Assembly: GCA_031261245.1 (NCBI GenBank)
Contig: JAISKU010000100.1
Location: 1 to 32,511, forward strand
Reading direction: 5' to 3'
Origin: Oscillospiraceae bacterium
GTDB taxonomy: Bacteria; Bacillota; Clostridia; Oscillospirales; Oscillospiraceae
DNA: 32,511 nt
Shown here: piece after piece, positions 1 to 27,049 of the stretch
How positions within the stretch are numbered: the stretch's first letter is position 1
Layout: every line of letters begins with the position of its first letter
Program-made: the position numbers and the translations under genes
The notes under the pieces: generated by a model
The model's database searches: none
Told to the model about the DNA's origin: nothing
The model's input: the letters and a program-made list of their open reading frames with translations, nothing else

Positions 1-1212
1 GCTCTCGCGCTCCGGATAGCGCAGCGCCGTGAGCTTCCCGCCGAAAACGCAGCCCGTGTCGATGCACACCGCGCCGTTCACGTTCCGCACCTCGGGAACA
101 GGCGTGTGGCCGTAGACGATGAGGGCGCGTCCGCGGTACTCCTCCGCCCACGGCAGGCGCACGGGCAGACCGAACTCGTCCGTCTCGCCGTCCGTGTCAC
201 CGTAGAGGCAGAAGCTGCGGACGCGCGACGACGCGCGGCCTTGCAGCTTTTCCGGCAGCCCCGCGTGCGCGACGACAAGCCGCCCGCCGTCAAAAACGTA
301 ATGGCTTACCAGGCCGTCGAGGAACACGGCGACCTCGCGCCTGAAATCCTCATTCTGCCCGTCGAGCTGTTCTATTGTGGCGTCCAAGCCGTGCGTGCGC
401 TGAACGTCCTTGCCGCGCAAGTGTTTCAGCAGCTTCGCGTCGTGGTTGCCGGGGACGCAGTACGCCGCGCCGGACGCGCACATGTTCATCACGAGCCGCA
501 AAACCTCTACGTTCCCCGGCCCCCTGTCGCACAAATCGCCGAGGAAAACCGCCCGTCGCCCCTCCGGCGGCGCGGCTGCGAAATTCTCCGCGTCAACCGC
601 GTAGCCGAGCTTTTGAAGCATCTCCGCAAGCTCGTCAAAGCAGCCGTGAACGTCGCCGATGATGTCGAACGGCCCTCTCTCGCTCTTTTTGTCGCTCCAC
701 AGCGGCGTGCGGACAATCTCGCATTCCGCGATATCCGCCTCGCTCTTTAGCGTGTAGACAAAACGGAAGCCGTCCTTTTTCAGATATTTCAGCGAGCGTT
801 TCAGCTGCGCGGACTGCTTCGCGATGACCGACGCGCCGAAGTCGCGATCCGCGCGCTTTTCGTTGCGCTCGCGGCAGACCTGCTCCGGCAAATCGAGGAC
901 AATCGCCGCGGCGTGGATATTCTGCTCTTTCGCGAGCCTGATTATCTCCCGTCGCGCGTCGGACTGCACGTTTGTCGCGTCGATTACAGTCAGCAGGCCG
1001 AGCTCCAGACGCTTGCGCGCGACGTAATACAGCGCGTCGAACGCCTGCGCCGACACGGCCTGATTGTTCTCGTCGTCAGAGACGAGCGCGCGGAAATAAT
1101 CCGACGAGAGAACCTCCGTCGGCTTGAAATGCGCCTTTGCGAACGTGCTCTTACCGCTACCCGACACTCCCACGAGCGCGACGAGACACAGCTCCGGTAT
1201 CTCTATTCGCAT
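1..1212 (-). CDS. pnkp: Polynucleotide kinase-phosphatase (Pnkp), N-terminal kinase and phosphoesterase domains; 3' part of the gene lies outside the window
   Basis: Not in the supplied ORF track because there is no stop inside the window. My translation of the minus strand from ATG 1212..1210 gives MRIEIPELCLVALVGVSGSGKSTFAKAHFKPTEVLSSDYFR..., a P-loop kinase (GVSGSGKST). It is followed by calcineurin-type phosphoesterase motifs DIIGDVHGC, FLGDLCDRGP, VPGNHD and VYGHTP. The ATG overlaps the hen1 stop (ATGCGAATAG), so the pair is translationally coupled. Confidence 0.85.
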   Translation of the reverse strand, partial: MRIEIPELCLVALVGVSGSGKSTFAKAHFKPTEVLSSDYFRALVSDDENNQAVSAQAFDALYYVARKRLELGLLTVIDATNVQSDARREIIRLAKEQNIHAAAIVLDLPEQVCRERNEKRADRDFGASVIAKQSAQLKRSLKYLKKDGFRFVYTLKSEADIAECEIVRTPLWSDKKSERGPFDIIGDVHGCFDELAEMLQKLGYAVDAENFAAAPPEGRRAVFLGDLCDRGPGNVEVLRLVMNMCASGAAYCVPGNHDAKLLKHLRGKDVQRTHGLDATIEQLDGQNEDFRREVAVFLDGLVSHYVFDGGRLVVAHAGLPEKLQGRASSRVRSFCLYGDTDGETDEFGLPVRLPWAEEYRGRALIVYGHTPVPEVRNVNGAVCIDTGCVFGGKLTALRYPERES

Positions 1213-2567
1213 AGCTCAAACACCCCCATCTGCGTCGGAGAGCCGTACTCCGCGCTCACGTCGCCGATTCCCGAAATCGCGACTTTGTAGCCGCGCCTCG
1301 CGGCAACTGCCTCCGCCCAAGCCGAAAACTCACTGCGCGTCCACTCAAAGCGGTGGTCGCCGTGGCGCATTTCGTCCGCCGTAAGCTTCTCGTACACCGC
1401 GTTGTAGTCGCGGTTCGGCGTCGTCAGCACGATTACGCGCGGCTTTGCGTACCCGAACAGCACGCGCTCAAACACATTCAGCCGCGCCGCGTCCAGATGC
1501 TCAATCACTTCCATCACGCTCGCCGCGTCGTAGCCTTGAATCCGCCTGTCCTTGTACGTCAGGGAACTTTGGAACAGCGTCACGCGCTCGTCTGTTCGCT
1601 CGCTCGCGGTTTCGAGCCGCAGCCTGTCCGACGCGCGCTTGAGCGACGATTGCGACACGTCCGTCCCCGCGATTTTCGCAAATTGCCCGTCCCGCAGCAG
1701 CAGACTCAGTAGCCGCCCCTCGCCGCAGCCGAGGTCGATTACCGTCCGCGCGCCCGACGCCTTCAGCGCATCGAGCACGGCGTCAAGCCGCTTCGCGTTC
1801 AGACCCGGCTCGCGCGCGGGCTTTTCCTCCGGTTCCTCAAGACCGTCGTTCAGCCGCGCGAAATACTCGCCGACGAGGTCGCGCTGGCGGTGCAGATAGC
1901 GGTCAACTATGAACTTGCGCTCGGGGTGGGTTTCGAGCCACTCACCGCCCGAACGCAGAAGCTTGTCCACCTCGTCGTCGCCGACCCAGTAGTGCTTGTG
2001 CCTGTCAAAAACGGGCAGGAGTACGTAGATATGCCGCAGCAAATCCCGCAGGCGGACGCTCCCGCGCAGGGTCAAATCGACGCAGCGGCTCTCGCCCCAC
2101 TCCGGAAAGCTCTCGTCCAGAGCGCGTGCTTCAAAGCTCACCGAGTACCCCAGCGGCCCGAATACTCGCGCGAGCATCGCAAAATCCGTGTTGCACGGGA
2201 GCATTGTGATCTCCGCCGACAGCTCCAGCGGCGAGTCGGACAGCTCCTGGTGCGCGTCCGCGCGCCCCGTCATCGCCGTGCCGAAAACCTTTGCGATCGC
2301 GACGCTCATAAACGACGACGAGACATACGGGCGGTCATTCACGTAATCAAACAGCCCCTCCGCGCCGCCCTTGCCCTTCGCGAGGTCGAGCGGGTCGATA
2401 TCGAGCAGCAGCGCCGCAGTCGTGCGCCCGTCCGTGACCTCGGGGTAAAAGACGTGCGCCATGCCGAACGTGAGGTCGAACGCCTGCGGGCAGCGGTTCG
2501 GGTTTTTGTAGAGCAGATACCCGAGGTCGGACGTGCCGCGCCCCGTGTAGGTGATGGTCAGGAGCAT
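1203..2567 (-). CDS. hen1: 3'-terminal RNA ribose 2'-O-methyltransferase Hen1 (bacterial RNA-repair partner of Pnkp)
   Basis: 454-aa ORF. The N-terminus MLLTITYTG..DLGYLLYKNPNR..AHVFYPE is typical of the bacterial Hen1 N-terminal domain. The C-terminal half has the SAM-methyltransferase motif VIDLGCGEGRLL. GGGAGG SD sits 7 nt upstream of ATG 2567. pnkp follows immediately downstream. Confidence 0.85.
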   Translation of the reverse strand: MLLTITYTGRGTSDLGYLLYKNPNRCPQAFDLTFGMAHVFYPEVTDGRTTAALLLDIDPLDLAKGKGGAEGLFDYVNDRPYVSSSFMSVAIAKVFGTAMTGRADAHQELSDSPLELSAEITMLPCNTDFAMLARVFGPLGYSVSFEARALDESFPEWGESRCVDLTLRGSVRLRDLLRHIYVLLPVFDRHKHYWVGDDEVDKLLRSGGEWLETHPERKFIVDRYLHRQRDLVGEYFARLNDGLEEPEEKPAREPGLNAKRLDAVLDALKASGARTVIDLGCGEGRLLSLLLRDGQFAKIAGTDVSQSSLKRASDRLRLETASERTDERVTLFQSSLTYKDRRIQGYDAASVMEVIEHLDAARLNVFERVLFGYAKPRVIVLTTPNRDYNAVYEKLTADEMRHGDHRFEWTRSEFSAWAEAVAARRGYKVAISGIGDVSAEYGSPTQMGVFELCE

Positions 2568-4440: not shown

Positions 4441-5946
4441 ATGAACCTGTCCAAATCCCGCTATTGCAGCGCTGTGCAGTGCCCGAAAATCCTCTGGATG
4501 CAGTCGCACATGCCCGAGGAATACGACGAAACCGTGATGAATGCGAGCACCCTCGCGATGGGAAACGCCGTCGGTGACCTCGCCATGGGCTACTACGGCG
4601 ACTTCACCGAGATTCCGTACAGCGACGACAAATCTGCGATGCTCGCCGCGACACAGGCGGCGCTGAACAACGGCGTCGCCGTGATTGCCGAGGCGTCGTT
4701 CGCGGTTGACGGGAACTTTTGCAGCGTGGACATTCTGCGCAATTTCGGCGGGTATGTCGAGATTGTCGAGGTCAAAAGCTCGACCGAGCTGAAGGACATC
4801 TATCTGCACGACATGGCGTACCAGTGCTACGTCCTGCAACAGTGCGGGCTGAACGTCGCGCGCGTGTCGCTCATGCACATCAACAACCAGTACGTCCGGC
4901 AGGGCGCGCTGGATTTGCGGGAGCTTTTCACCGTCGAGGACCACACGGCTGACATGGACGCCCTGCTCGCGGATATTCCAGACAATATCGCGCGCTTCAA
5001 GGCGATCGCTGATCAGAGTGATGAACCCGATATCGGCATAAGCGAAAACTGTGACAAGCCGTATGAGTGCGGCTACAAGAGCCACTGCTGGCGGGATATC
5101 CCCGAAAACAGCGTATTTGACGTCGCGGGACATATGCACGCGACGAAAAAATGGGATATGTACCGGCGCGGCATCGTCACCTTTGCGGAGATTATCGCGT
5201 CCGGCGTAAAAATAAACGATAAACAGCGGCGGCAGGTGACGGGCGAGCTGTCGCGCGGCGCGCCCGAGATCAACAAGCGCGAAATTCGCCTGTTCCTCAA
5301 TTCTCTCCGCTATCCGCTGTACCACCTCGATTTTGAGACGTATCAGGCCGCGATTCCCGAGTACGACGGACTGCGGCCGTACTCGCAGGTGCCGTTCCAG
5401 TTCTCGCTGCACATTGAGTACACCGAGGGCGCGGAGCCGGAGCACCGCGAATTCCTCGCGGAGGCCGGAGCCGACCCGCGCCGAGAGCTTGCGGAGCGGC
5501 TTTGCGCGGATATCCCCGCGGGCGTGTGCGTCCTCGCCTACAACAAGGCGTTTGAGCAGTCGCGGCTGCTTGAGCTCGCGCGGCAGTTCCCGGATTTGAG
5601 CGGACACCTCACGTCAATCCGCGAGAATATTGAGGATTTAATGCTGCCGTTCGAAAAGCAGGACTACTACGATTGGCGCTTCAAGGGGTCGTACTCGATA
5701 AAGTATGTGCTGCCCGCGCTCTGCCCCGGCGACCCGGAGCTGGATTACAACGCGCTCGACCTGATTCACAACGGCGGCGAAGCGATGGACGCGTTCCCGG
5801 CGCTCGCGGCGCTCCCGCCCGACGAGGCGGAGCCGTACCGCCGCGCCCTGCTCGCGTACTGCCGCCTCGACACCCTCGCGATGGTGAAAATTCTGGCGCG
5901 GCTGCGTGAGGAAGCAAAGAAGGACAAGAGCTTTGAATCGATATAG
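4441..5946 (+). CDS. DUF2779-type protein (N-terminal PD-(D/E)xK/Cas4-RecB-like nuclease fold plus C-terminal RNase-H-like region)
   Basis: 501 aa. The N-terminus LSKSRYCSAVQCPKILWM and the motif VEIVEVKSS (ExK) match the pattern I recall for DUF2779. The C-terminal half has YHLDFETY...PFQFS, which looks like an exonuclease motif. GAGAGGTG SD; only a 10-nt gap after the preceding stop. Confidence 0.7.
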   Translation: MNLSKSRYCSAVQCPKILWMQSHMPEEYDETVMNASTLAMGNAVGDLAMGYYGDFTEIPYSDDKSAMLAATQAALNNGVAVIAEASFAVDGNFCSVDILRNFGGYVEIVEVKSSTELKDIYLHDMAYQCYVLQQCGLNVARVSLMHINNQYVRQGALDLRELFTVEDHTADMDALLADIPDNIARFKAIADQSDEPDIGISENCDKPYECGYKSHCWRDIPENSVFDVAGHMHATKKWDMYRRGIVTFAEIIASGVKINDKQRRQVTGELSRGAPEINKREIRLFLNSLRYPLYHLDFETYQAAIPEYDGLRPYSQVPFQFSLHIEYTEGAEPEHREFLAEAGADPRRELAERLCADIPAGVCVLAYNKAFEQSRLLELARQFPDLSGHLTSIRENIEDLMLPFEKQDYYDWRFKGSYSIKYVLPALCPGDPELDYNALDLIHNGGEAMDAFPALAALPPDEAEPYRRALLAYCRLDTLAMVKILARLREEAKKDKSFESI

Positions 5947-5973: not shown

Positions 5974-6843
5974 ATGATCATCAGCGCGTCGCGTCGAACG
6001 GATATTCCGGCGTTCTACTCCGAGTGGCTCGTGAACCGGCTGCGCGAGGGCTTTGTGCTCGTGCGCAATCCGGTGAATCCGTCGCAGATTCGGCGCGTCG
6101 AGCTCGCGCCGGAGTGCGTGGACGGCTTCGTGTTCTGGACGAAAAACGCCGCGCCGATGCTCCCGAAGCTCGACGCGGTTGCCGCGTTCCCGTACTATTT
6201 CCAGTACACCATCACCGCCTATGATTCGGACATCGAGCGCGGCCTGCCGTCGAAGCGCGACGTCGTGATTCCCGCGTTCCGGGAACTCGCAGCGCGCGTC
6301 GGAGCGGAGCGCGTCGTGTGGCGTTACGACCCGATTCTATTCACGCCGAGGTACGATTTCGACTACCACATCCGCGCGTTCACGCGGCTGTGCGGTTTGC
6401 TCGAGGGCAGCACGCGGCGGTGCGTCGTCAGCTTCGTGATTCCGTACAAGTCGATTGCGGGGAGCTTCCGTGCCGCCGGAATCGAGGTTCCGACGGGCGA
6501 CGCGCGGCTGCGGCTCGCTGAAAAACTGCTGCAAACAGCGGCGGAGCGCGGGATTGCGCTGTGCGCGTGCTGCGAGTCGCCGGAGTTGTACGCGCTCGGC
6601 GTCAGCCCGACGGCGTGTGTGGATTCGGCGCTGCTCGGCGAGATTGCGGGGCGGCCGCTCGAGGTCAAGCGCGACAAAAATCAGCGCGACGGCTGCAACT
6701 GCGCCGCGAGCGTCGATATCGGCGCGTACAACACGTGTCTGAACGGCTGCGCGTACTGCTACGCGAACCACGGCGCGCGCCGCGTCGCGTCGAACGCGGC
6801 GGCGCACGATGCGACGAGTCCGCTGATAGTGGGGAATGTTTAA
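5974..6843 (+). CDS. DUF1848 family protein (putative Fe-S cluster protein)
   Basis: 289 aa. The N-terminus MIISASRRTDIPAFYSEW is characteristic of DUF1848. C-terminal Cys cluster: CNCAASVDIGAYNTCLNGCAYCYAN. GAGGTG SD upstream. Confidence 0.75.
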   Translation: MIISASRRTDIPAFYSEWLVNRLREGFVLVRNPVNPSQIRRVELAPECVDGFVFWTKNAAPMLPKLDAVAAFPYYFQYTITAYDSDIERGLPSKRDVVIPAFRELAARVGAERVVWRYDPILFTPRYDFDYHIRAFTRLCGLLEGSTRRCVVSFVIPYKSIAGSFRAAGIEVPTGDARLRLAEKLLQTAAERGIALCACCESPELYALGVSPTACVDSALLGEIAGRPLEVKRDKNQRDGCNCAASVDIGAYNTCLNGCAYCYANHGARRVASNAAAHDATSPLIVGNV

Positions 6844-6860
6844 GATTTTTATTTTGTGCA

Positions 6861-6900
6861 ATCAAGGCTTACCGTTTTTCGCGGTAAGCCTTGATAATTT
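6861..6900 (+). terminator. Rho-independent-type terminator ending the 2709-6843 operon
   Basis: 14-bp perfect stem ATCAAGGCTTACCG (6861..6874) / CGGTAAGCCTTGAT (6882..6895) with a 7-nt loop, followed by AATTT. It marks the left edge of the AT-richer island. Confidence 0.6.
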
Positions 6901-6927
6901 CTAAATTGTCATATTACGAGAATTGTA

Positions 6928-6956
6928 TTGACCCGCAAATCCCTTTGGTCTATAAT
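6928..6956 (+). promoter_or_regulatory. Sigma-A-type promoter of the accessory + type III effector operon
   Basis: TTGACC (6928..6933) - 17 nt - TATAAT (6951..6956), 29 nt upstream of GTG 6986, which is preceded by GGAGGT. Confidence 0.6.
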
Positions 6957-6985
6957 TAAAACCAATATTCTGTGGAGGTGCAGCA

Positions 6986-7840
6986 GTGACGACATATAAA
7001 ACGATATACAATGCGCAGGTGAGTTGCCCCCCTTCAAGCAGAAAAAATACATACGAAAAACTGAAAGACTTTGAATCGAATTTTAGTACAATGGCCGCAA
7101 ATCTCCAAATCAATGGTACTGTTGACTACGAGATCGGGTATCAGGAAGAAACGGAATATTTTGACACGCTGTTCGATGTGTCAAAGGTACTGCTAACATG
7201 CGGCTTGAGTAACGATATATTCAAGAGCAAGAATAGAGGCCCTATTTATTTCAGCCATTCTGTATTCCCGGACACAAAAAAATACTCTGACTTTCGCAAA
7301 GCAATGAGAGCGCTTGACGCCATCGGCTATGTCAGTTATAAGGGCCATCGCGGGAATCCCTCCAATGCTTACATTATAACGGGCTGCGACATAACAATTG
7401 CTGATGATGAAGTAAAATCGCGTTTTCTCTCAAAGGACGCATGGTACGAGGTGTACATAATGGGAGTGGTACGAACGATTATGGAAACATCTTTCAATGA
7501 GGTGCCGTATGAATTGGCGACAGGCGTCACAATCAGGTTAAATAACAATGACATCACCGACTGTGATGTTTTGCTTGCGGTTGGCAATTCTGTTTTTTAT
7601 ATTGAAACAAAAGTAAGTGCTTATAAGGGCAAAGAATATGAGTCTTACATGAATAAATACGCTAACCACATCGAACTATTCGGATTTTCCCCTGTAAACG
7701 CTTGCTTTGTATGTCTGAACAAAACCGATGAGAAGTTAGCCGAAATGAGAACCTACGCAAACGGACGATTTCATGTTCATGATAACCGCTCATTTCCCAT
7801 GTGGATTGAGAACCGCATTCGGGAAGTATTAAAAAAATAA
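6986..7840 (+). CDS. Card1/Can2-type (DUF1887-like) PD-(D/E)xK nuclease domain protein with a non-CARF, winged-helix-like N-terminal half
   Basis: 284 aa; GTG start 5 nt after GGAGGTG. The C-terminal half has KDAWYEVYIMGVV (the GxW[FY]Exy helix I associate with the Card1/Can nuclease domain). It also has the catalytic-type pattern DCDVLLAVGNSVFYIETK (D..D..(E)xK). The N-terminal segment FRKAMRALDAIGYVSYKGHRGNPSNAYIITG looks like a wHTH recognition helix plus wing. I see no Rossmann/CARF pattern. Confidence 0.55.
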   Translation: MTTYKTIYNAQVSCPPSSRKNTYEKLKDFESNFSTMAANLQINGTVDYEIGYQEETEYFDTLFDVSKVLLTCGLSNDIFKSKNRGPIYFSHSVFPDTKKYSDFRKAMRALDAIGYVSYKGHRGNPSNAYIITGCDITIADDEVKSRFLSKDAWYEVYIMGVVRTIMETSFNEVPYELATGVTIRLNNNDITDCDVLLAVGNSVFYIETKVSAYKGKEYESYMNKYANHIELFGFSPVNACFVCLNKTDEKLAEMRTYANGRFHVHDNRSFPMWIENRIREVLKK

Positions 7841-7915
7841 CCGCACCCGCTGCGAAAAACCGTAAACCGCACCTCAATAAATTAAGTAATGCAAAACAAT
7901 TAGGAGTGATATCTG

Positions 7916-8755
7916 ATGACAAGAAAGAAAAAATTCTTCGCCGCGATTAGCCTTATCGACAAAGAAGAGCGTGAAGCCATATCATATGCGTTCCATGAAT
8001 CCTGCGAGATTTCAGGCGGCTATGTTATGTCTGTCCACAATCCCGTTATGGCGTTCATTATGGACAAGGTGAAGCCCGATGAGGAGCTTGACCTGTACCT
8101 TATTCTGTGCCGGGGCGACTGCGCCAACGGAGCGTTATCCGGTTCTGCGGCGAGAAACGCGGACAACAAAATCAGCACCGCCGTCGCCAAACGCCTACAG
8201 GAAATTCTTGGCGCGGGAAACGGTCTGACTGTTGATTCCCCGGTAGTTTTTGACGGCGCCTCACAGGCTTCCGGCGACTGTGACTTAAATACCGTACGCG
8301 AGATGTTTCGCAAAAAGAACGGCGCGGACGCGGACTTCAGGTGTACCGTCCATCTCGTGGACGACAGCGACAGCGAGGGTAATACGCTCGGCAACAGCAG
8401 CAAGGCGTATATTCAGCTGCTTCGCAAGCTCATCAAGCTGATTGAAGACCACGACATTATCTATGTTGACACCACATATGGGTTTAAACCATTATCTGAA
8501 GTATGGAGAAATCTCTGCATATACGCTGTTCGCGCGAAAACCGGGGCGGAGGTCGGCGCGTTTTCATACGGCAGCCTATACGGCGTTACGAACGAGAACC
8601 CGACAATCTTCAACAACCGCGCCTTTTTGGTAATGGGCGATATAATGAGCAACGCCTACGACAACAAAACCACGGACACGATTATTAACGACTTGCTTGA
8701 GGATTTGCAGAACGACAACTGGGACGAGGATGATTTAGAGGACGAGGAGGTATAA
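7916..8755 (+). CDS. Stand-alone CARF-like (TM1812/Csx-type Rossmann) protein with a poly-acidic C-terminal tail
   Basis: 279 aa; AGGAG SD 9 nt upstream. Pattern: beta-1 KKFFAAISLI, then ELDLYLILC, then helix YIQLLRKLIKLIEDHD followed by IIYVDTTYGFKPLS. The last matches the CARF signature D[IV]T[HG]GF[RK]..P. Then AFSYGSL. Tail: NDLLEDLQNDNWDEDDLEDEEV. Confidence 0.55.
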   Translation: MTRKKKFFAAISLIDKEEREAISYAFHESCEISGGYVMSVHNPVMAFIMDKVKPDEELDLYLILCRGDCANGALSGSAARNADNKISTAVAKRLQEILGAGNGLTVDSPVVFDGASQASGDCDLNTVREMFRKKNGADADFRCTVHLVDDSDSEGNTLGNSSKAYIQLLRKLIKLIEDHDIIYVDTTYGFKPLSEVWRNLCIYAVRAKTGAEVGAFSYGSLYGVTNENPTIFNNRAFLVMGDIMSNAYDNKTTDTIINDLLEDLQNDNWDEDDLEDEEV

Positions 8756-8757
8756 TC

Positions 8758-9999
8758 GTGGGAGCAAGGGAGCAGTGGCTATCCGAACAGGATTGGGAAA
8801 CTGCACGGTCAAGAATAAATGAGGCGGCGAATGACGGAAAGTCTTCTGATGCTGTTCTGCCCTACTTTCTCAACGAAAACGGCGTACGGGTCGGAAGGCT
8901 TAAAGAATATTACGGCGTGACGCTTTGCGAAATCAAGACAATCAAAGGTGTTTTATTTTGCGAACCCGGGGACATGGTGTGTATCGTAAGCGATAAGCTG
9001 TCAAAATATAAAAAATACTTGAGTGACAAGGGCTGCGAAGCAAAGGAGTTTTTCGAGTATCTGTGCGGAGAATTTACGCCCCATCCGAAGTTCGCCATTA
9101 AGCGGGCCCACCTTGACATAAACAACGAGCTCACAGAAGTACAGGAGAAAGACTTTTCAAAAATACACAAATATCTGACGGAATTGGCGGGTACCGAAAA
9201 CACTGACGACCATAAGGAGCTTATTTCGGCGCTGCTGAATTCAGGGGACGCCGATGATGACCTACGCAAATTGGGAAAGCGGCTTGACGCGAAAAAAACG
9301 CTTACCGTCAAAAAGAAACTGCGCGAATATGAGTCCCTGCGGTTGTCGCCGTCATTGTCACTTGACAAAGAGCGCGGCGACGACATCACGTTGTACGATA
9401 CCTTGTCGAGTGATGACGAGTATGAAATAGAACAAGATGTTCAAAGCAATGACCATGTTTCGGCAAACCTAAACAATGATTTAAACAACCTGTTTGGCGC
9501 CAAGATTGAAAGGCGTGTTCTGGCGACAAAGTATCTAACGGAGAATATTATCAAGACCAGCCCAAATGTGTCAAACTATCGCAGAAAGTACGAACGCGAA
9601 CACGGCGGCAAATTGCCTGTTCTGAAATACTATGTCGTCAATTACAAAGGTGTCCGCAGCGCGCTGGAACAATGTTCAAAAAAAGAATTGTCAGAATATG
9701 CGCAAGTCGATTGTGTCAACCCAAAAAGCAAACGCGGCCTCTGCGCTGATTGTGACCCGCAATGCGAAACTTATTGCGAAGTGGATGCCAAAACAATAGC
9801 GACGGCATACGCAGTATCGGCCGGGAGATATATGGTTCAGGTCGCGTGTCATATATTCGCAAGCGGAAAAGTTCCGTCAAACAGGCAGTTGCAAGAGTTC
9901 GGCGATATTTCGGGATTATACAGCGTATCACCGCTTGACGATAGGATGATAAACAGTATGATTAAAAATCTCGCAAAAAAATATAAAATAAGGTGGTGA
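8758..9999 (+). CDS. Hypothetical Cys-rich 413-aa protein; possible HTH / sigma-70 region 3.2-4-like C-terminal half (weak)
   Basis: GTG start 2 nt after the preceding TAA, with GAGGAGG 8 nt upstream. Cys cluster: CVNPKSKRGLCADCDPQCETYC. The segment LSLDKERGDDITLYDTLSSDDEYE...LFGAKIERRVLATKYL resembles the sigma-70 SLD..TLxD linker plus region 4.1 (compare SigK in this window: VSLSDPIDTDREGNALTLIDLI). AKTIATAYAVSAGRYMVQVA resembles a region 4.2 HTH. I see no region 2. Confidence 0.35.
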   Translation: MGAREQWLSEQDWETARSRINEAANDGKSSDAVLPYFLNENGVRVGRLKEYYGVTLCEIKTIKGVLFCEPGDMVCIVSDKLSKYKKYLSDKGCEAKEFFEYLCGEFTPHPKFAIKRAHLDINNELTEVQEKDFSKIHKYLTELAGTENTDDHKELISALLNSGDADDDLRKLGKRLDAKKTLTVKKKLREYESLRLSPSLSLDKERGDDITLYDTLSSDDEYEIEQDVQSNDHVSANLNNDLNNLFGAKIERRVLATKYLTENIIKTSPNVSNYRRKYEREHGGKLPVLKYYVVNYKGVRSALEQCSKKELSEYAQVDCVNPKSKRGLCADCDPQCETYCEVDAKTIATAYAVSAGRYMVQVACHIFASGKVPSNRQLQEFGDISGLYSVSPLDDRMINSMIKNLAKKYKIRW

Positions 10000-10004
10000 G
10001 CGGA

Positions 10005-11429
10005 ATGTCAATATTCGCGGTATACGACACGACGGGTATCCAAGACTATGTGTTCGCGTCTGGGAAGTTCTCCGAGTGTAAAGGCGCGTCTAACCTTGTG
10101 CGATCAATTTTTGCGGACATTCTGCCAGGTGCCATGCCTCCCGGTAGCATCACCGATTGGAAGCCCCGCACGGACATACCGCTTGACCGCGCCGCGCCCG
10201 CCGAGCTCGTGTGCGCGGGCGGTGGCAACGCCTATGTGGTTTTCAAAGACGAGAACACTTTCCGGGACACAACGAAGCGGTTTCTCCGAGCCGTGCTTGA
10301 AAAGACTTGTGGGATGGGTATCGCGGTCGCGGCGGTTGAAACAAATCTTGCGAACTTTGCCGCCGATTATAAAGAGCTGCAGCGGCGCATATCGCTCACA
10401 AAGGGCAACGTCAACAGGACGCTCATAGCGGGAAGCCGGAACATCACGCAATCAACCGCGCAGACGAACGAGCCCGTCACGAGGGTCGTATTGCGCCACA
10501 ATAAATATGTAAGCCTGTCCGAGGGGCAGTATCTCAAAACAAAATATATTCCCAAGGATATTCCCAAGGGCGCAAGAGAGTTTGACGATCTGACGGATGC
10601 GGGCAACAACTTTATCGGCGTAATCCACGCGGACGGGAATAACATGAGCGACAAAATCAGGGCGTTTGTGGCGAGTGAAATTGACTGGAACAGTGCCGTG
10701 CCGAAGCTTCGCCGTATGTCAAAAAACATTTCGGCTTATTTCCAACTTGCCTATGAGAAAACCGTGAGCGGCTTTGATTTGCCGATAATCTCGCTCGTCA
10801 CGGACGGCGAGGACATGACATTTATAATACAAGGCAAATACGCCGTATCCTTCGCCGCGGAATATCTCAGAAATGTTGAACGCCTAAACAACGAAGCGGA
10901 TATTAAGCCGTTTGACGACGACGAAACAATAACCGCCTGCGCCGGCGTGGCGCTGTTCCACAGCCATTTTCCGTTCATTGAGGCGTACAAAATGGCGGAG
11001 GAACTGTGCTCAAGCGCGAAAAGCGCGGCGCGACGCGCGCCGGACACATCATACGTGGACTTCCATATCCACAGCACGGGTTTTGTGACAACCGTTAGCG
11101 AACATAGGGGTAACTATTATCCGAATGTCGGAAAAAACCTGTATTCTCGACCATTACGGATTGGCGGCGGTTTTGAGGATTTTGAACAACTGACGGCGTC
11201 GCTTTCGGGCGGCGATAAGTATCCGCGCACAAAACTGAAATCGCTGCGCTCCGCGCTGAATAATCACGCGGACGGCGATTTTACCGACGCGCGGGCGCTG
11301 ATCAAGTCGCTCGGTCTGTCGGACGAAATAAAACCCTCCAAAAGCGCCGAGGTTCACGAATACGCGCTGCTGAACGACGCGCTTGAATTTATGGATACCT
11401 ATGAACGTGTCGCCGGAGGTGTGGCATGA
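10005..11429 (+). CDS. cas10: Minimal Cas10-like subunit (two palm/cyclase-like domains, no HD domain, no Zn finger)
   Basis: ATG 10005 (GGTGGTGA SD); GTG 9993/9996 are alternatives. It opens with IFAVYDTTGIQDYVFASGKFSECKGASNLV, the GIQxFIF...GAS palm motif of Cas10. Then come ELVCAGGGNAYVVF (degenerate palm 1) and FIGVIHADGNNMS. SLVTDGEDMTFIIQG sits at the GGDD position. ITACAGVALFHSHFPFIEAYKMAEELCSSAK matches the SAGI...AK motif. YSRPL and a short helical C-terminus follow. Confidence 0.75.
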   Translation: MSIFAVYDTTGIQDYVFASGKFSECKGASNLVRSIFADILPGAMPPGSITDWKPRTDIPLDRAAPAELVCAGGGNAYVVFKDENTFRDTTKRFLRAVLEKTCGMGIAVAAVETNLANFAADYKELQRRISLTKGNVNRTLIAGSRNITQSTAQTNEPVTRVVLRHNKYVSLSEGQYLKTKYIPKDIPKGAREFDDLTDAGNNFIGVIHADGNNMSDKIRAFVASEIDWNSAVPKLRRMSKNISAYFQLAYEKTVSGFDLPIISLVTDGEDMTFIIQGKYAVSFAAEYLRNVERLNNEADIKPFDDDETITACAGVALFHSHFPFIEAYKMAEELCSSAKSAARRAPDTSYVDFHIHSTGFVTTVSEHRGNYYPNVGKNLYSRPLRIGGGFEDFEQLTASLSGGDKYPRTKLKSLRSALNNHADGDFTDARALIKSLGLSDEIKPSKSAEVHEYALLNDALEFMDTYERVAGGVA

Positions 11430-13489
11430 CGAATATAGAATTAGAACTATTGTCCGACACCCACGCGGGCGCGGGACTCGGCGCGTTCGGCGGTGTTGAC
11501 GCAGAAATATCGCTCGACAAATACGGTCTGCCCATTATCCCCGCGAAGCGCGTCAAGGGCCGTCTGAGCGAAGCCGGAGAGGAAATACTCTCGGTATTTC
11601 CGCAGTATTCGGACATTTTTCTTAGATTGTTCGGCGAAAAGGGCAGCGAAAAATCCGGCGAGCTGGAAATCCATACGGGAACGCTTTCAAAGCCCTATCC
11701 CGCCGAGGATTTGGTAAAGGAGATAAAGAGCGAGCGGTACACGCCGAGTCGGGTGACGGAGCTTTTTACATCACTCCGTACGAGCACCGCCGTGAGCGAG
11801 GATGACGGATTGATTCATCAGACGGACGAGAGCGCCCTGCGCGTAATCCGCGTTGCCGACAAGGGCTTAAAATTCCGGTTTGATGTTGAATGCCCTGATG
11901 ACGGAACGGAGTTTTTGGGGAAATGCTGTTTAGCGTTGCGGGACATAGGCGCCAATCGCACAAGAGGCCTCGGCGAGGTGAGGTGCAGGCTCGTCGTCTC
12001 CGACGAGACTGCGGAGGCGTCAATCGGCAAATTTGCGCCGCAGTCGGTCACGGAGCATTTGAAATGCGCGACATATTTCTTAGAGCTTACAGAACCGGTC
12101 GCGATTTCCGATGACTATATCCCCGGCTCGTTGATTTTAGGCAGCTTCTCAAGCGCATGGGTTAGGAAACATCCCGGCGTACCGCCGCATACAAGCCCCG
12201 AATTTCGCAGGCTGTTCCTTGACGGCGGCGTAAGCTTTCTCTCGGCGTATCCTCTCAGCGATAAGGGCAAGGTGCTCTATCCCGCCGAGCGCGGTATTCG
12301 CTCAAAAAAAGACGGCAACGAGATTAAAGACGCGAGCTTCGGCGACATTCCGGATGAATACACCAAAACCCTCACCGGGTTCGGATACAAAAGCGGCAGT
12401 AACTACCATCAGCTCGGCGGGGTATCGAGAGCCGTCGCCGCGCACCACGCCAGACCCTCGGACAAGTCGATCGGACACGCGGTGGAAAATGCCGGCGCGG
12501 AAAGCGGCGCGTTTTATAAATACGACGCGCTGGCGCAGGGCTTAAAATTTGTCGGCGGTATTGTCGGTTCTGACTCGGATTTAGAGATTATACATTCGCT
12601 CGCGGACGGAACCGTGCGGCTTGGGAAGTCGCGGAGCGCGCAATACGGAAACGTAAAATTTGACTGGACTGACTATGCGTTTTTAGAAAACGAAAAGCTC
12701 ACCGTAAAAAGCGATGAGAGTTTTAAGATTATTTTGCGTTCTCCTTTAATACTTACGGACGATGACGGTACCGTCTCACCCGACCCGAAACTGCTGCTTG
12801 ACGCTTTGAATCTCGGCGGTTGCTCTCTCGTGAAGGTGTTTTGCTCGGCGGCAGTCGCGGCAGGCTATAACTCAAAGTGGCTCCTGCCGCGCACGCAGGA
12901 GTTCGCGCTTGCGGGCGGAAGTGTGATTGTCGCAAAAAATGAAAGCGGAAAAGATATTGCGCTTGATTCTGTCGAAAACTTTGTTGGCTTACGCAGGGGC
13001 GAGGGCTTCGGGCATGTTTTTATCGAAAAGCTTACAGACTCAAGGCTGACTCACAAGCAGCCTGCAAAACAGGACACCGTAAGCATTGGCTCCGCTAAAA
13101 CCCGGCATCTCAAAGAATTAATACTGAAACAGCAAGTATTATCACGCGTACAGTACGCTGTCGAGCAGAGCAAAGCAACGAATGTTACCAACTCACAGCT
13201 CGGCAGACTTCGCGGGTACCTGTCCGTGTGTGACAGCTTTGACAGTTTGGCCGAAAAGCTGAACAGCGTGGCTTGGAAGCAGACAAAGGACCGCGAAAAT
13301 ATCCAAAAATTCATCTTCGACCAAAAGGCCGAGGACGGCGACATTTTGAGTTTACTCAAACAAAAAGCCGAAAGCGTTGTCGAATCCGATATCTGGCGAC
13401 TGCTTGACGAAAGAGCGCGGTACTATTGGTTCAAGACATATCTGATTATGCTGATACGCAGACGCAAAGGAGAGAAGGAGGGACAGTAA
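11426..13489 (+). CDS. Fused RAMP protein, Cas7-Cas5-Cas11-like (type III-D variant style large fusion subunit)
   Basis: 687 aa; ATGA overlap with cas10. The N-terminal RAMP has GLPIIPAKRVKGRLSEA and the G-rich loop GANRTRGLGEV. A second RAMP-like unit has YIPGSLILGSFSS ... LGKSRSAQYGNV, followed by VGLRRGEGFGHV. The C-terminal helical part with NVTNSQLGRLRGYLS resembles the Cas11 (Csm2/Cmr5) SQLR motif. Confidence 0.7.
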   Translation: MTNIELELLSDTHAGAGLGAFGGVDAEISLDKYGLPIIPAKRVKGRLSEAGEEILSVFPQYSDIFLRLFGEKGSEKSGELEIHTGTLSKPYPAEDLVKEIKSERYTPSRVTELFTSLRTSTAVSEDDGLIHQTDESALRVIRVADKGLKFRFDVECPDDGTEFLGKCCLALRDIGANRTRGLGEVRCRLVVSDETAEASIGKFAPQSVTEHLKCATYFLELTEPVAISDDYIPGSLILGSFSSAWVRKHPGVPPHTSPEFRRLFLDGGVSFLSAYPLSDKGKVLYPAERGIRSKKDGNEIKDASFGDIPDEYTKTLTGFGYKSGSNYHQLGGVSRAVAAHHARPSDKSIGHAVENAGAESGAFYKYDALAQGLKFVGGIVGSDSDLEIIHSLADGTVRLGKSRSAQYGNVKFDWTDYAFLENEKLTVKSDESFKIILRSPLILTDDDGTVSPDPKLLLDALNLGGCSLVKVFCSAAVAAGYNSKWLLPRTQEFALAGGSVIVAKNESGKDIALDSVENFVGLRRGEGFGHVFIEKLTDSRLTHKQPAKQDTVSIGSAKTRHLKELILKQQVLSRVQYAVEQSKATNVTNSQLGRLRGYLSVCDSFDSLAEKLNSVAWKQTKDRENIQKFIFDQKAEDGDILSLLKQKAESVVESDIWRLLDERARYYWFKTYLIMLIRRRKGEKEGQ

Positions 13490-14793
13490 TGAGCGAAAAA
13501 CTCACGGTTAAGCGTGTTTATGCCGTTTGTAAAATGCGGCTTGAAGCACCGGCGCTCATTGGCACGTCCGAAGATATTGAGCGCGACCGCGATGTCGCGC
13601 TTAACAAGGACGGCAACCCGTTTATCCCCGGCACGACATTAGCGGGTATTTTGAGAAGCTCCCTGACCGTCAGCGATGCGGACACGCTGTTCGGCAAACG
13701 TATAAGAGCTAAGGGCGATGAAATCAAACAAAGTCCGCTATGGGTTTACGATGCAGAGATCTTTAACGGGCAGATTATCACTATCGATAATGTGTCGCTT
13801 GATGAAAATCAGAGAAACGCGAAAATACCTGAAAATCCGGAACTCGACCACATGAATAAATCTGCTAAAAACGAAGCGAAATTTGATATGCAGGCCGTGG
13901 ACAAAGGTGCGGAGTTCGACCTCCGTTTGTGTCTGATTGTTCGCGATGGCGACACAAAAACAGAGATTTTGCTCGCTCGTCTGCTTGAGACGCTGAACAA
14001 CCTCTACGTCGGCGGAAAAACCTCTCGCGGATTCGGTAAGTTGTCTTGCTTCGGTGTTTACAAACACGCTTTTGACTTCACGGGCGCGGATAAACAATCA
14101 CAGATGGACGCGTGGCTCGCATTTGAAGATTGGAAAACGCTTGAAACGGATGAGTACAGGCAAGACCTCGTGTTTATACCGCCGGTAGGTGTTTCGACGC
14201 TTTCCGCCAAATTGACGCTGAACGGCGCCGTGCTTGTCCGCGACATATATTCCGTTGAGGATGACGAGGACTTTGCGCACACTAAAAGCGCGGGATCTTC
14301 CGTGATATACGGCACATCGTGGGCAGGCGCGCTACGCGGTGGTTTGGCGCGGTTGTTCAAGTCAAACGGATATGAGAGCGCCGAAGCTTTCCTTGACAGC
14401 GTGTTCGGCAGACAGTATGGCGATAAGGCCGTAACCGAACCGTCGAAAATCCGCGTTGACGCGTCATATATCAGCGGCGGCGAACGGCTGATATACTCGC
14501 GCAATAAGATAGACCGGTTCACCGGCGGCACTGCAAATACTGCGCTGTTTACTAACCGTCCGCATTTCGGCGGTAAGACAATACTCACTGTACAATTCAA
14601 AACAGCCGATGTCGCTATAAGAGAGCTGTTGCTGCTTGCGCTTGACGCCCTGAACAAGGGACTAATTACGCTCGGCGGCGAAACCTCAATCGGGCGCGGA
14701 GTGTTCACCGTTGGTCGCGTATCCCTTGATGGTCAGAAAGCTCAATTCGGCGCTAAACCGACCGCGTTAAAGGAGGCGCTATCGCATGTTTGA
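13489..14793 (+). CDS. Fused double Cas7 (Csm3-like x2) RAMP protein
   Basis: ATG 13489 overlaps the preceding stop (TAATG), with AAGGAGAGAAGGAGG upstream. Unit 1 has DRDVALNKDGNPFIPGTTLAGILRS ... GGKTSRGFGKL. Unit 2 has SVIYGTSWAGALRGGL ... LGGETSIGRGVF. Confidence 0.75.
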   Translation: MSEKLTVKRVYAVCKMRLEAPALIGTSEDIERDRDVALNKDGNPFIPGTTLAGILRSSLTVSDADTLFGKRIRAKGDEIKQSPLWVYDAEIFNGQIITIDNVSLDENQRNAKIPENPELDHMNKSAKNEAKFDMQAVDKGAEFDLRLCLIVRDGDTKTEILLARLLETLNNLYVGGKTSRGFGKLSCFGVYKHAFDFTGADKQSQMDAWLAFEDWKTLETDEYRQDLVFIPPVGVSTLSAKLTLNGAVLVRDIYSVEDDEDFAHTKSAGSSVIYGTSWAGALRGGLARLFKSNGYESAEAFLDSVFGRQYGDKAVTEPSKIRVDASYISGGERLIYSRNKIDRFTGGTANTALFTNRPHFGGKTILTVQFKTADVAIRELLLLALDALNKGLITLGGETSIGRGVFTVGRVSLDGQKAQFGAKPTALKEALSHV

Positions 14794-15331
14794 CGAAAAA
14801 ATCGGCAACAAATTCGGAAACAATAAGGCGTGGGCCGTCTGTACTATGTACCACGGTGTGATCATCGGCAAATGGGACGGTAAACGCCTGAATTTTCATA
14901 AAGACGCGGAGTTCTCAGAGGATTGCGTCACGGAAATGCGCGTATTTAACAACGACGCGGAGCTGCGCTTTGTTAAGACAGACGGCGGTATAAAAGAGCG
15001 CTATATCACGGATGGCGCAAATTCAGACGTATACGACAAAAAGTATCTCGTCTACGGTACGGATTACACGCCGGACAGCGGCGGAATATTCCTAACCGAA
15101 GAACGCGGCGGCAAGCTGTGGTTTCCCGCCGTACCGGAGTTTGCGGACGGAAAGGTAAACCTCTGGCTCGGTATCCGCAACTATTTGAAATACAACCCCG
15201 TGTCAATTGGTGATGACGATACAAAACGTCAGACAGGCAAACCCGCGCTTGAGGTCACTGATTATCGTTACTTTGGATTTTACGAGGGGTTATCGTCTGA
15301 CGGCACAGCTACGACGGAGGTTTTGCTATGA
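14786..15331 (+). CDS. Small type III-D-associated protein in the Csx19 position; identity based on position only
   Basis: 181 aa; overlaps the upstream gene by 8 nt (ATGTTTGA) and the downstream gene by 4 nt (ATGA). Its size and its place between the double-Cas7 and the insertion-Cas7 match where csx19 sits in described III-D variant loci. I recognise no motif. Confidence 0.4.
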   Translation: MFDEKIGNKFGNNKAWAVCTMYHGVIIGKWDGKRLNFHKDAEFSEDCVTEMRVFNNDAELRFVKTDGGIKERYITDGANSDVYDKKYLVYGTDYTPDSGGIFLTEERGGKLWFPAVPEFADGKVNLWLGIRNYLKYNPVSIGDDDTKRQTGKPALEVTDYRYFGFYEGLSSDGTATTEVLL

Positions 15332-17445: not shown

Positions 17446-17811
17446 ATGAGCTACAACACTTACGACAAGTACGGCAACAAAAAAGGCTACAGCACAACCT
17501 CCACCGGTATCTTTGGCGGCAATACGACGAGTCACTACAACAACTCCGGTAAGCGCACGAGCACAACGACCTACGACAAGGGCATCTTCGGCGGCACAAC
17601 AGCAAACCACTACGGCAGAGACGGCAAGAAATCCGGCTACAGCAAGAGGGAGACAGGCATGTTCGGCGGCAACTACACACAGCACTACGACAAGTACGGC
17701 AGCAAAACCGGCACTTCGCGACGCGAATCAGGTTTTTTCGGAGACAAGATCGTCCACTATGACAAGTATGGGAACAAGAGGGGCTCAAGCAAGAAGAGCG
17801 GGTGGTTCTAA
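17446..17811 (+). CDS. Gly/Tyr/Lys/Thr-rich protein built from 25-aa tandem repeats; function unknown
   Basis: 121 aa; AAAGGAG SD 9 nt upstream. Repeat register is exact: G[IMF]FGG at residues 21, 46, 71 and 96, and HYDKYG.K.G.S recurs every 25 residues. No signal peptide or TM segment. Confidence 0.65.
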   Translation: MSYNTYDKYGNKKGYSTTSTGIFGGNTTSHYNNSGKRTSTTTYDKGIFGGTTANHYGRDGKKSGYSKRETGMFGGNYTQHYDKYGSKTGTSRRESGFFGDKIVHYDKYGNKRGSSKKSGWF

Positions 17812-18543: not shown

Positions 18544-19138
18544 GTTTACAATTCAAGAATCTCGGCGCGAGATTGAAACCATAATAAATCCTTTCGTTTT
18601 TTACGACGTTGGGGCAGGAAATACCTTAACCTCGGTGCGAGATTGAAACCGATATTCATGTTGTTAATATAGATACAAAACGTAGGAAATACCTTACTCT
18701 CGGCGCGAGATTGAAACGTCATACTCATAGTGGTGTTGCTCCTTTCTTTTTTGTAGGAAATACCTTAATCTCGGTGCGAGATTGAAACTTTTCAGCGCCC
18801 TTTGGTTATGTGGATACGCTTAGGTCGGAAGAACCTTTATCTCGGTGCGAGATTGAAACTGCCATGTCTGGTACCTCCATCTTTTTAATAGCGTAGGAAA
18901 TACCTTAATCTCGGTGCGAGATTGAAACCCCGGAGAAGTGACGTGACCAGTCACCGCGGAGTGTAGGAAATACCTTAATCTCGGTGCGAGATTGAAACGC
19001 AACCTTCCTTTCAAATCGTTGTCATCATAAAAGTAGGAAATACCTTAATCTCGGTGCGAGATTGAAACGATTTTCAGGGCACTAGCCCGCCTTTCTTTTG
19101 GCGTAGGAAATACCTTAATCTCGGTGCGAGATTGGAGA
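18544..19138 (+). CRISPR. CRISPR array, 9 repeats / 8 spacers (32-35 nt); consensus repeat GTAGGAAATACCTTAATCTCGGTGCGAGATTGAAAC (36 nt)
   Basis: Repeats are at 18544, 18614, 18682, 18753, 18824, 18893, 18963, 19033 and 19103, each 36 nt. R4, R6, R7 and R8 are identical. R2, R3 and R5 carry 2, 2 and 4 substitutions. R1 keeps only the 3' 22 nt. R9 ends ATTGGAGA instead of ATTGAAAC. Orientation is plus because the repeat ends with the canonical 8-nt crRNA tag ATTGAAAC, all cas genes are co-directional, and the promoters lie upstream. Internal hairpin: AATCTCG-GTG-CGAGATT. Confidence 0.95.
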
Positions 19139-19146
19139 AACACATA

Positions 19147-19863
19147 ATGAAATGTGTGGATTTTGTTCTGCAAAAGCGAGATTTATCGGGGCTTTACTCA
19201 TCATTGGCGGTAAAGCTCCAGGCTTTTCTCATGTCAAAAACAGAGGGCGCCGCGGCGGAGTATCTGCACAAGCGCAATCTGCGCCCGTACAGCTTGTTCA
19301 CTGTGGAGCAGCGGGAAAATATCATTTTTCGGCTGAACATCCTGACCGATGAGGCTCTGCCCTTGTACAATGCCGCGCTTAATACGCGTCGCTACGCAGT
19401 TACCGGTATCAATGGCGGCATAGACGTATTGGACACTGTGACTTATGACGATATGCCGCTTTCGGATTTGCGCGGCAGCGCTCCGAAGCAGTTTAAGCTG
19501 TTGCTTGCCTCCCCCGCCACGTATAAGCACGAAAATACTTACTCGAACATATTCGCGCTCGCGCCTCTGTTTTTTAGCGTTGCGGACAAGCTGCGGTTGT
19601 TTTTTGGAGTTGATATAAGCAACGCGGAGATAACTGCGCTATGTGAAACGCTGAAATTTGTACAGTACAACTTCAGAAGTGATACATACGCGGTCAAGCG
19701 CGGCAACGTAATACCGGCGTTTTCCGGCGAGTTTGCGCTTGCTCCGCGCGGCACGGACGCGCAGACAGAAAAGCTTATGCTTCTGTTGCGGTTCGCCGAA
19801 TACTCCGGCGTCGGCGCGAAGACCGCGCTCGGAATGGGCGGTGTTTTACTCGATGAAAAATAG
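19147..19863 (+). CDS. cas6: Cas6 crRNA-processing endoribonuclease
   Basis: 238 aa from ATG 19147; the track start 19132 is a TTG inside the last repeat. The C-terminal G-rich loop FAEYSGVGAKTALGMGGV is the Cas6 signature. GGAGA of the degenerate last repeat sits 8 nt upstream of the ATG. Confidence 0.8.
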   Translation: MKCVDFVLQKRDLSGLYSSLAVKLQAFLMSKTEGAAAEYLHKRNLRPYSLFTVEQRENIIFRLNILTDEALPLYNAALNTRRYAVTGINGGIDVLDTVTYDDMPLSDLRGSAPKQFKLLLASPATYKHENTYSNIFALAPLFFSVADKLRLFFGVDISNAEITALCETLKFVQYNFRSDTYAVKRGNVIPAFSGEFALAPRGTDAQTEKLMLLLRFAEYSGVGAKTALGMGGVLLDEK

Positions 19864-24780: not shown

Positions 24781-24782
24781 AA

Positions 24783-27049
<2,267 letters not shown>

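Follow-up and report, generated by a model that had tools for sequence, protein, structure and literature searches.

The window analysed here, a 32,511-nucleotide (nt) stretch of contig JAISKU010000100.1 (assembly GCA_031261245.1, Oscillospiraceae bacterium), carries a type III-D CRISPR locus, with a Cas10d, a Csx10-type Cas5, Csx19, multiple Cas7 proteins, a Cas6 and a CRISPR array. The gene at the head of this locus, which is followed by genes for a stand-alone CARF protein and a cysteine-rich protein and then by the cas genes (Table 1), is the subject of this report. Sequence comparison and a structural model predict that its product is a PD-(D/E)xK nuclease of the Can2/Card1 lineage (DUF1887, PF09002) with an intact catalytic centre, and very probably it is a Can2-type nuclease that has no CARF sensor of its own.

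A preliminary description of this DNA had assigned the C-terminal half of the protein to the DUF1887/Card1-type nuclease fold, and profile searches, PADLOC models, the Pfam matches of distant relatives, structural comparison and the catalytic signature all agree with that assignment. A profile built from eight family sequences retrieved Can2 (7BDV; E = 8.2e-8), Cdn1 (8Z4I; 4.6e-5), the DUF1887/Can2 protein 8BAO (8.4e-5) and VC1899 (1XMX; 2.7e-4) from the PDB and matched nothing there besides these four sequences, all of which align at their C-terminal nuclease domains. In the alignment to Can2, the W-Y-E helix, the D-V-L-L strand and the I-E-T-K strand of our protein correspond to GGWFEHY, ELDVVF and IECKT, respectively. 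The single sequence matched the PADLOC profile CARF4--CARF_PDDEXK (E = 3.4e-4, residues 143-250), and the CARF_PDDEXK profiles align to it at their nuclease part alone (positions of about 224-336 out of about 361-364). The Pfam model PF09002 (Card1_endonuc) left the single sequence unmatched, and relatives scored 25.9 bits against a gathering threshold of 26.4. Searched alone, the protein otherwise returned just NERD from Pfam (E = 0.03), noise from NCBIfam, nothing from PHROGs and, with phmmer, noise from the PDB.

The published Can2 signature, E-ExD-(E/S)CK (PMC10783487), maps onto E155, D192-C-D194 and E207-T-K209 of the protein. Seven positions are invariant in the eight-sequence alignment (F147, W153, E155, D194, E207, K209 and V264), among them the E, D, E and K of this signature, and at position 192 the close family has D, except for an E in one member (P0005), and the distant relatives have E. 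The two motifs singled out in the preliminary description, KDAWYEVYIMGVV (residues 150-162, nt 7433-7471) and DCDVLLAVGNSVFYIETK (residues 192-209, nt 7559-7612), do map onto a PD-(D/E)xK active site, and the spacing of 31 residues that it gave between them holds approximately, V162 being separated by 29 from D192 and by 32 from D194. In line with these alignments, an AlphaFold2 (AF2) model calculated from five family sequences (predicted local distance difference test [pLDDT] score 76, predicted template modelling [TM] score 0.79) shows a core of helix 152-169, strand 175-185, strand 188-199 (carrying D192 and D194), strand 202-209 (carrying E207 and K209), helix 217-232 and strand 239-243, with the acidic residue on strand 2 and the (D/E)xK element on strand 3, as in the PD-(D/E)xK fold. 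Core pLDDT values are mostly 82-96, with two blocks of 10 residues at 64-67. When the model was compared with the PDB using Foldseek, the best 18 matches were all VC1899, Cdn1, Can2 or Card1 (E = 2.7e-9 to 7e-5), at just 11-15% identity in the structural alignments to this family, and a fold search of BFVD returned only uncharacterised phage PD-(D/E)xK proteins at low TM-scores (0.40 or less).

The absence of a CARF sensor had also been proposed in the preliminary description, and this proposal stands. Neither an NxTGGTK motif nor the triplet GGT is present in the protein, alignments to the CARF_PDDEXK profiles all stop short of their CARF positions (1 to about 150), a Foldseek search of the PDB with a separate model of residues 1-150 returned no CARF or Rossmann protein, comparison of the N-terminal alignment with the neighbouring CARF family by hhalign gave a probability of 0.4%, and there are only about 58 residues in which a CARF could lie. 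A cryptic CARF in the N-terminus was rejected on the motif, Foldseek and hhalign results. Residues 1-58 are modelled with low confidence and, beyond a start of the form M-x-Y-[EK]-T, are poorly conserved, residues 1-15 being disordered. The part that follows (residues 59-150) consists in the model of helices 59-72, 75-79, 97-112 and 142-149 and strands 87-90, 116-122 and 131-138, the last two strands forming a hairpin. The earlier statement that the N-terminal half lacks a beta-alpha-beta pattern is therefore incorrect when taken literally, since short strands lie between helices in the model, but correct in its conclusion that this is not a CARF. A stretch in this region, FRKAMRALDAIGYVSYKGHRGNPSNAYIITG (residues 103-133, nt 7292-7384), had been called winged helix-turn-helix (wHTH)-like. 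The separate N-terminal model (pLDDT 61 overall and 63-86 for residues 61-150) found nothing significant in the PDB (best E = 0.14, TM-score 0.39 or less), and the weak list that it returned consists mostly of winged-helix domains (CodY, MarR, ArsR/SmtB, ScpA and PadR), which lends the wHTH label weak support and leaves it plausible for the modelled subdomain.

Foldseek alignments of the full model with Cdn1, Can2 and VC1899 extend over 238-292 columns for a query of 284 amino acids (aa), with TM-scores for the query (TMq) of up to 0.56. The Cdn1 chain in the Foldseek output has 399 residues, its CARF ends near residue 150, and the remainder of the chain is described as "nuclease domain" (PMC12825302). 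Taken with the alignment lengths, these figures mean that the size of our protein fits Can2/Cdn1 minus the CARF. The Foldseek output gives no residue ranges, and the N-terminal half was mapped onto Can2/Cdn1 from alignment lengths, TM-scores and the hmmsearch alignment to 8BAO. We conclude that the protein retains all of the parts of Can2/Cdn1 that lie downstream of the CARF and that about 58 poorly conserved residues replace the CARF itself.

The nuclease belongs to a very rare family. A word-indexed search of 5.8 billion proteins returned the query alone, and exhaustive HMMER searching of 1.84 billion cluster representatives, the sole type of search that revealed relatives, found seven. Of these, P0002-P0005 are close relatives (29-46% identity, E = 6e-30 to 2e-18) and P0006-P0008 distant ones (E = 1e-5 to 5e-4). 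The latter match Pfam Card1_endonuc (7.8e-6 to 5e-3) as well as numerous PADLOC CARF_PDDEXK profiles (best E = 1.9e-11), and these matches fall without exception in the nuclease part of the profiles. The close family amounts to six proteins among the 1.84 billion cluster representatives, and scans with the nuclease alignment added one contig among 185,579 species genomes, from an already known Gracilibacteraceae metagenome-assembled genome (MAG), and one JGI metagenome contig. Two of the distant relatives are likewise Card1-like proteins that lack a CARF: P0006 (L004, 8001-8540) adjoins type I-like cas genes (DevR/Cas7 and a Cas3 helicase), and P0007 (L005, 8001-9290) lies in an island rich in toxin-antitoxin genes in a 5-Mb genome (GCA_000317575.1).

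Upstream of the GTG codon at 6986 there is a Shine-Dalgarno sequence, GGAGG, at 6974-6978 on the plus strand, with a spacing of 7 nt. The public gene call for this protein (P0001) starts instead at an ATG at 7091 and gives 249 aa. The homologues begin with M-[RKE]-Y-[EK]-T, and the window protein, when read from the GTG, begins with M-T-T-Y-K-T; this shared N-terminus of the form M-x-Y-[EK]-T favours the GTG at 6986 and makes the 284-aa form the likelier product. The genes downstream of the nuclease gene are closely packed or overlapping and all on the plus strand, and the G+C content falls from about 61% to 41% at the nuclease gene, the island as a whole having 41-55% against 60-65% in the flanks. 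Together with the promoter and the ribosome-binding sequence, these features bear out the earlier placing of the nuclease gene as the first in the CRISPR operon. Placed between the DUF1848 gene and the promoter of the operon, a perfect inverted repeat coincides exactly with the edge of the island in G+C content. It was missed by a terminator scan because no T-run follows it, and it may be either a terminator for the gene upstream or a feature of the insertion boundary.

Table 1 Positions of the nuclease gene, its parts and the associated features in the window
Feature	Position	Strand	Basis or remarks
Putative CARF-less Can2/Card1-like nuclease gene, 284 aa	6986..7840	+	ORF (open reading frame), profile searches, alignment, AF2 model
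N-terminal segment, aa 1-58: disordered tip and long helix 17-39	6986..7159	+	Model, alignment
Helical subdomain ending in a beta-hairpin, aa 59-150; basic (isoelectric point [pI] 9.2), winged-helix-like	7160..7435	+	Model, weak Foldseek matches
Predicted PD-(D/E)xK core, aa 151-284, alpha-beta-beta-beta-alpha-beta	7436..7837	+	Invariant columns, alignments to Can2 7BDV, Cdn1 8Z4I and 8BAO, model
Predicted catalytic codons	E155 7448-7450, D192 7559-7561, D194 7565-7567, E207 7604-7606, K209 7610-7612	+	Alignment
Sigma-70-like promoter, TTGACC-17-TATAAT	6928..6956	+	11/12 matches, best site in 6700-10100
Perfect 14-bp inverted repeat, 7-nt loop	6861-6874 / 6882-6895		Read from sequence
Stand-alone CARF protein, 279 aa, CARF2 (Csx1/Csm6) clade	7916..8755	+	PADLOC CARF2--CARF 5.6e-19, TIGR02221 0.0024
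Conserved 413-aa protein, invariant Cys cluster	8758..9999	+	Alignment
Cas10d, 478 aa, without HD domain, palm motifs HADGN and DGED	9993..11429	+	PADLOC Cas10d 5.3e-94, Pfam Cas10 palm2
Cas7-Cas5 (Csx10) fusion	11426-13489	+	Type III-D effector gene
Double Cas7	13426-14793	+	Type III-D effector gene
Csx19	14786-15331	+	Type III-D effector gene
Large Cas7 (TIGR03986)	15328-17295	+	Type III-D effector gene
CRISPR array, nine 36-nt repeats (GTAGGAAATACCTTAATCTCGGTGCGAGATTGAAAC), period of about 70	18544..19138	+	Sequence
cas6	19132..19863	+	ORF from TTG 19132; ATG 19147 is the likelier start

The second gene of the operon encodes a CARF protein that had no CARF4 match in the PADLOC search. Its strand-4 motif, DTTYGFK, follows the pattern D-x-T-x-G-x-K/R; within it, D-T-T-Y-G-x-K is invariant across the loci aligned, and a K or R after strand 4 is a conserved ligand residue of CARF domains (PMC4012209). 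The C-terminal tail is conserved and rich in D and E (for example, DNWDEDDLEDEEV), and the protein as a whole has a pI of 4.55; in addition, about 90 aa are inserted midway through the CARF. A profile of this family run against 5.8 billion proteins found only the five proteins of the loci described below, a scan of genome contigs with the CARF protein found none, and the profile had no match by sequence in the PDB. Because the neighbouring CARF belongs to the CARF2 and not the CARF4 clade, the arrangement is not a simple fission of a Can2 gene, and that origin was set aside. The third gene begins 2 nt past the CARF stop codon and overlaps the start of cas10 by 7 nt. Its 413-aa product has four invariant cysteines (C319, C332, C336 and C340) and an FF-x-YLC motif, has orthologues in all five loci and gave no consistent match to Pfam, NCBIfam, PADLOC, PHROGs or the PDB; an ArpU-like match (E = 0.059) was dropped, being absent from three orthologues.

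The Cas10d match spans the full length of the 462-position profile, and the protein starts directly at a GIQDY motif. HADGN and DGED, the latter in place of GGDD, are invariant in five loci. Members of the Cas10d family are complete at about 460-510 aa and have no HD domain. The other components of the type III-D locus were identified by the PADLOC models Cas5_IIId (6.6e-114), Csx19 (1.2e-25), Cas7_IIId (1e-129 and 4.5e-86) and Cas6 (2.6e-31). Among the genes that were read, neither the window nor the related loci yielded a cas1 or cas2, which makes an adaptation (Cas4-like) role for the nuclease unlikely. The order nuclease, CARF, cysteine-rich protein, Cas10d and effector genes is identical in all five loci with readable context (the window, L001, L002, L003, which is the Gracilibacteraceae MAG, and L009-L012). 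Identity of the orthologues to the window proteins is 31-35% for the nuclease (26-27% for P0005), 48-52% for the CARF protein, 29-31% for the third protein and 54-56% for Cas10d. This identical order, together with the restriction of the CARF family to these loci, indicates that the three accessory genes behave as one module. In L002 (83-2905), genes for a relaxase, MobC/NikA and AAA_25 adjoin the whole nuclease-CARF-type III-D locus and, taken with the shift in G+C content in the window, this suggests that the locus is mobile.

Several other features lie in and around the island. Array repeats end in ATTGAAAC; degenerate ones are found at the 5' end (18544, 18614, 18682 and 18824), and the 3' end of the final repeat is altered (GATTGGAGA), with the cas6 ORF beginning within or just after that repeat. 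Between the last Cas7 gene and the array, a 121-aa ORF (17446-17811, plus strand) made up of repeats of about 25 aa (GIFGG..T..HYDKYG.K.G) has no family match and could be a real repeat protein or merely repetitive DNA. Just upstream of the array, a 137-aa ORF (17918-18331, plus strand) has a signal-peptide-like N-terminus, its sole match being a weak one to a signal-peptide model. The high-G+C genes upstream of the island encode a Hen1 RNA-repair methyltransferase (1203-2567, minus strand), a DUF2779 protein with a weak Cas4-like match (4441-5946) and a DUF1848 protein (5974-6843), and their composition suggests that they are not part of it. In the downstream host region, an ORF (24477-25202) contains tandem repeats (24485-24740) whose periods are 19-20 and 37 nt.

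Among the nearest known counterparts of the nuclease are Can2 and Card1, which join a CARF4-clade CARF to a PD-(D/E)xK domain (PDB 7BDV, 8BAO, 6XL1 and 8Q3Y; Pfam PF09002). The nuclease domains are homologous and share the catalytic signature E, [ED]xD, ExK, the subdomain preceding the core aligns too, and, like Can2 clade 1, which is associated with type III-D systems, the protein is encoded in a type III CRISPR locus. It differs from type III-D Can2 clade 1 in having a canonical ExK in place of the SxTTS-K form found there, and from Can2/Card1 in general in having neither a CARF nor NxTGGTK, so that it would be unable to sense cyclic tetra-adenylate (cA4) itself. Cdn1 (PDB 8Z4I and 9U49; PMC12825302) gives the best global superposition (TMq 0.56, root-mean-square deviation 4.6, 267 columns), and the size of our protein corresponds to that of Cdn1 without its CARF (residues 1-150); the fused CARF of Cdn1 binds cA3, cA4 and cA6, whereas our protein has none. 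A non-CARF "PD-DExK" family of type III accessory proteins has been catalogued previously (Shah et al. 2018, cluster 45, Marme_0670; PMC6546367), and the PADLOC profile PDLC01131 is described as the "same family as the one fused to CARF, 1XMX". Since non-CARF PD-DExK proteins of the 1XMX lineage are thus already on record for type III systems, a nuclease without a sensor is not new in kind. The distant relative P0007 matches PDLC01131 at 3.3e-4, whereas our protein and its close family are unmatched by it at E values up to 0.1 and form a separate rare branch with an N-terminal subdomain of its own and obligate CARF and cysteine-rich partners. Full-text literature searches found no description of a Can2 without a CARF.

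Two further comparisons concern the signal and the partner gene, not the nuclease. In the CalpL and SAVED-CHAT systems, the signal passes from a sensor protein to separate proteins. CalpL, with a SAVED sensor for cA4, and SAVED-CHAT are sensor-containing type III effector families (PMC11229360). Those relays differ from the present case in that they involve SAVED-domain proteases, and a relay from a CARF protein to a separate nuclease was not found in the literature searched. The product of the neighbouring gene resembles Crn1 and the self-limiting Csm6/Csx1 CARFs in that it is a CARF-only protein of the Csx1/Csm6 clade, and such CARFs can degrade cyclic oligoadenylate (cOA); Crn1 proteins, however, are crenarchaeal.

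How might a nuclease without a sensor be switched on? The preliminary description had left a choice between activation in trans and a different trigger, and the strict co-occurrence of the nuclease with a stand-alone CARF in all five loci favours the former. An HD domain is rare in type III-D Cas10 proteins, whose action is believed to proceed chiefly through cOA, and variants of GGDD, including DGDD and GGED, are found in systems with known effectors (PMC11229360). The Cas10d of the window, which has no HD domain and keeps the cyclase-type palm motif DGED, should accordingly report the binding of target RNA through cOA. In the pathway that we propose, the Cas10d complex would bind target RNA and make cOA, the stand-alone CARF, the only recognisable cOA sensor in the module, would bind it, and a CARF dimer would pass the signal to the nuclease in trans. 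It might do so by bringing nuclease subunits together as an active dimer, the role of the fused CARF in Can2, where binding of cA4 in the CARF dimer rearranges the nuclease domains and so activates them (PMC10783487). Alternatively, cOA might free an inhibitory contact, for example, that of an acidic, DNA-mimic-like CARF tail with the basic winged-helix subdomain, an option made conceivable by the acidity of that tail and the pI of 9.2 of residues 59-150. The third, cysteine-rich protein may be an adaptor, and the activated nuclease would degrade DNA and/or RNA non-specifically, like Can2 and Card1. A precedent for a CARF domain that binds partner proteins is RtcR with RtcAB (PMC9650030).

We regard the chances that the nuclease is an effector of cOA signalling controlled in trans by a separate CARF as about even. 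Put forward more tentatively is the complete scheme of a split cOA pathway, in which a sensor-only CARF of the Csx1/Csm6 clade, bearing an acidic tail, would control a CARF-less Can2-type nuclease in trans, with the cysteine-rich protein as third component, through ligand-dependent assembly or through release of a DNA-mimic-like inhibitory tail. A number of observations weigh against control in trans. The link between CARF and nuclease is one of guilt by association in five loci, and the gap of 75 nt between the two genes is looser than the coupling of the CARF gene, the third gene and cas10. The literature searched contains no characterised case of a CARF-only protein that activates a separate nuclease; those CARF-only proteins that have been characterised (Crn1) act as ring nucleases (PMC8284326), and CARFs of the Csm6/Csx1 clade often degrade cOA (PMC12825302), so the neighbouring CARF may be an off-switch instead of an activator. 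The motif DGED in this exact form is absent from the active variants published, the model of the N-terminus is of low confidence over residues 1-54, and the occurrence of more distant CARF-less relatives outside type III loci means that such nucleases can work without cOA.

These observations leave room for other explanations. Unlikely, in our estimation, is that the nuclease replaces the missing HD domain of Cas10d: it would be recruited or activated directly by the target-bound Cas10d complex, possibly via the cysteine-rich protein, and would cut DNA or RNA near the transcribed target, with the CARF as ring nuclease, cOA sponge or regulator and not as the activator. The lack of an HD domain in Cas10d, translational coupling of the third gene to cas10 through their 7-nt overlap and the ring nuclease activity of the characterised CARF-only proteins are in keeping with this idea, and Shah et al. 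proposed that non-CARF accessory nucleases of the restriction fold complement type III DNA targeting or join the effector complex (PMC6546367). However, a CARF that merely degraded cOA would leave the module without a cOA-responsive effector, yet the cyclase-type palm motifs are invariant; moreover, coupling to cas10 is loosest for the nuclease gene, and the characterised members of its lineage are all controlled by ligand-driven rearrangement of a dimer and not by docking to an effector complex (PMC10783487). Distinctly unlikely is an autonomous, cOA-independent nuclease, either a restriction-like enzyme guided by its winged helix or a toxin that the acidic CARF or the third protein would restrain, forming an addiction module that stabilises a mobile CRISPR island. 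The distant CARF-less relatives P0007, from an island rich in toxin-antitoxin genes, and P0006, next to type I cas genes, the foreign G+C content of the island, the relaxase and MobC genes next to one copy and the position of the nuclease as first gene behind its own strong promoter would all suit such a role. Wherever the context is readable, though, the close family of six is found only at the head of a type III-D operon, the module contains no methyltransferase or other self-protection gene, and the co-inherited CARF, with its invariant ligand motif, argues for nucleotide signalling.

Two last possibilities concern the nature of the protein itself. It is very improbable that it is mainly a DNA-binding regulator of the operon, its nuclease fold serving for dimerisation or binding and not for cleavage. 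The basic winged-helix-like subdomain and the promoter-proximal position of the gene would fit a regulator, and many unannotated effector domains fused to CARFs prove to be HTH regulators (Domainator preprint), but the five catalytic positions (E155, D/E192, D194, E207 and K209) are kept at 21-35% identity, which would not be expected of a non-catalytic scaffold. We give least credence to the suggestion that the N-terminal half is a highly divergent CARF and the protein an ordinary Can2, even though almost all of the query is covered when Foldseek aligns it to Can2 and Cdn1, and strands alternate with helices to some extent between residues 46 and 138 of the model. Ahead of the segment matching the post-CARF portion of Can2 there are only about 58 residues, whereas a CARF needs about 150; NxTGGTK is absent and the CARF positions of the profiles are uncovered; and the N-terminal model retrieves winged-helix domains and neither CARF nor Rossmann proteins, in agreement with the hhalign result.

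To our knowledge, sensor and nuclease are joined in one polypeptide in all characterised CARF nucleases. What distinguishes the present family is its fixed partnership with a sensor-only protein of the CARF2 clade and a cysteine-rich protein, and the loci thus combine an apparently intact Can2-type nuclease without a sensor, so far always paired with a sensor-only CARF of another clade, with a Cas10 that has no HD domain. The largest recent census of type III effectors left out loci with a Cas10 of less than 500 aa (PMC11229360), a cut-off that makes for a blind spot in such surveys, the Cas10 of the window having 478 aa. If the nuclease is indeed controlled in trans, the three accessory proteins would offer a small testbed for the transfer of a ligand signal between separate proteins, CARF signalling could run via protein-protein relays, like that of the SAVED-protease systems, and CARF sensors and effector domains would be exchangeable as separate proteins.

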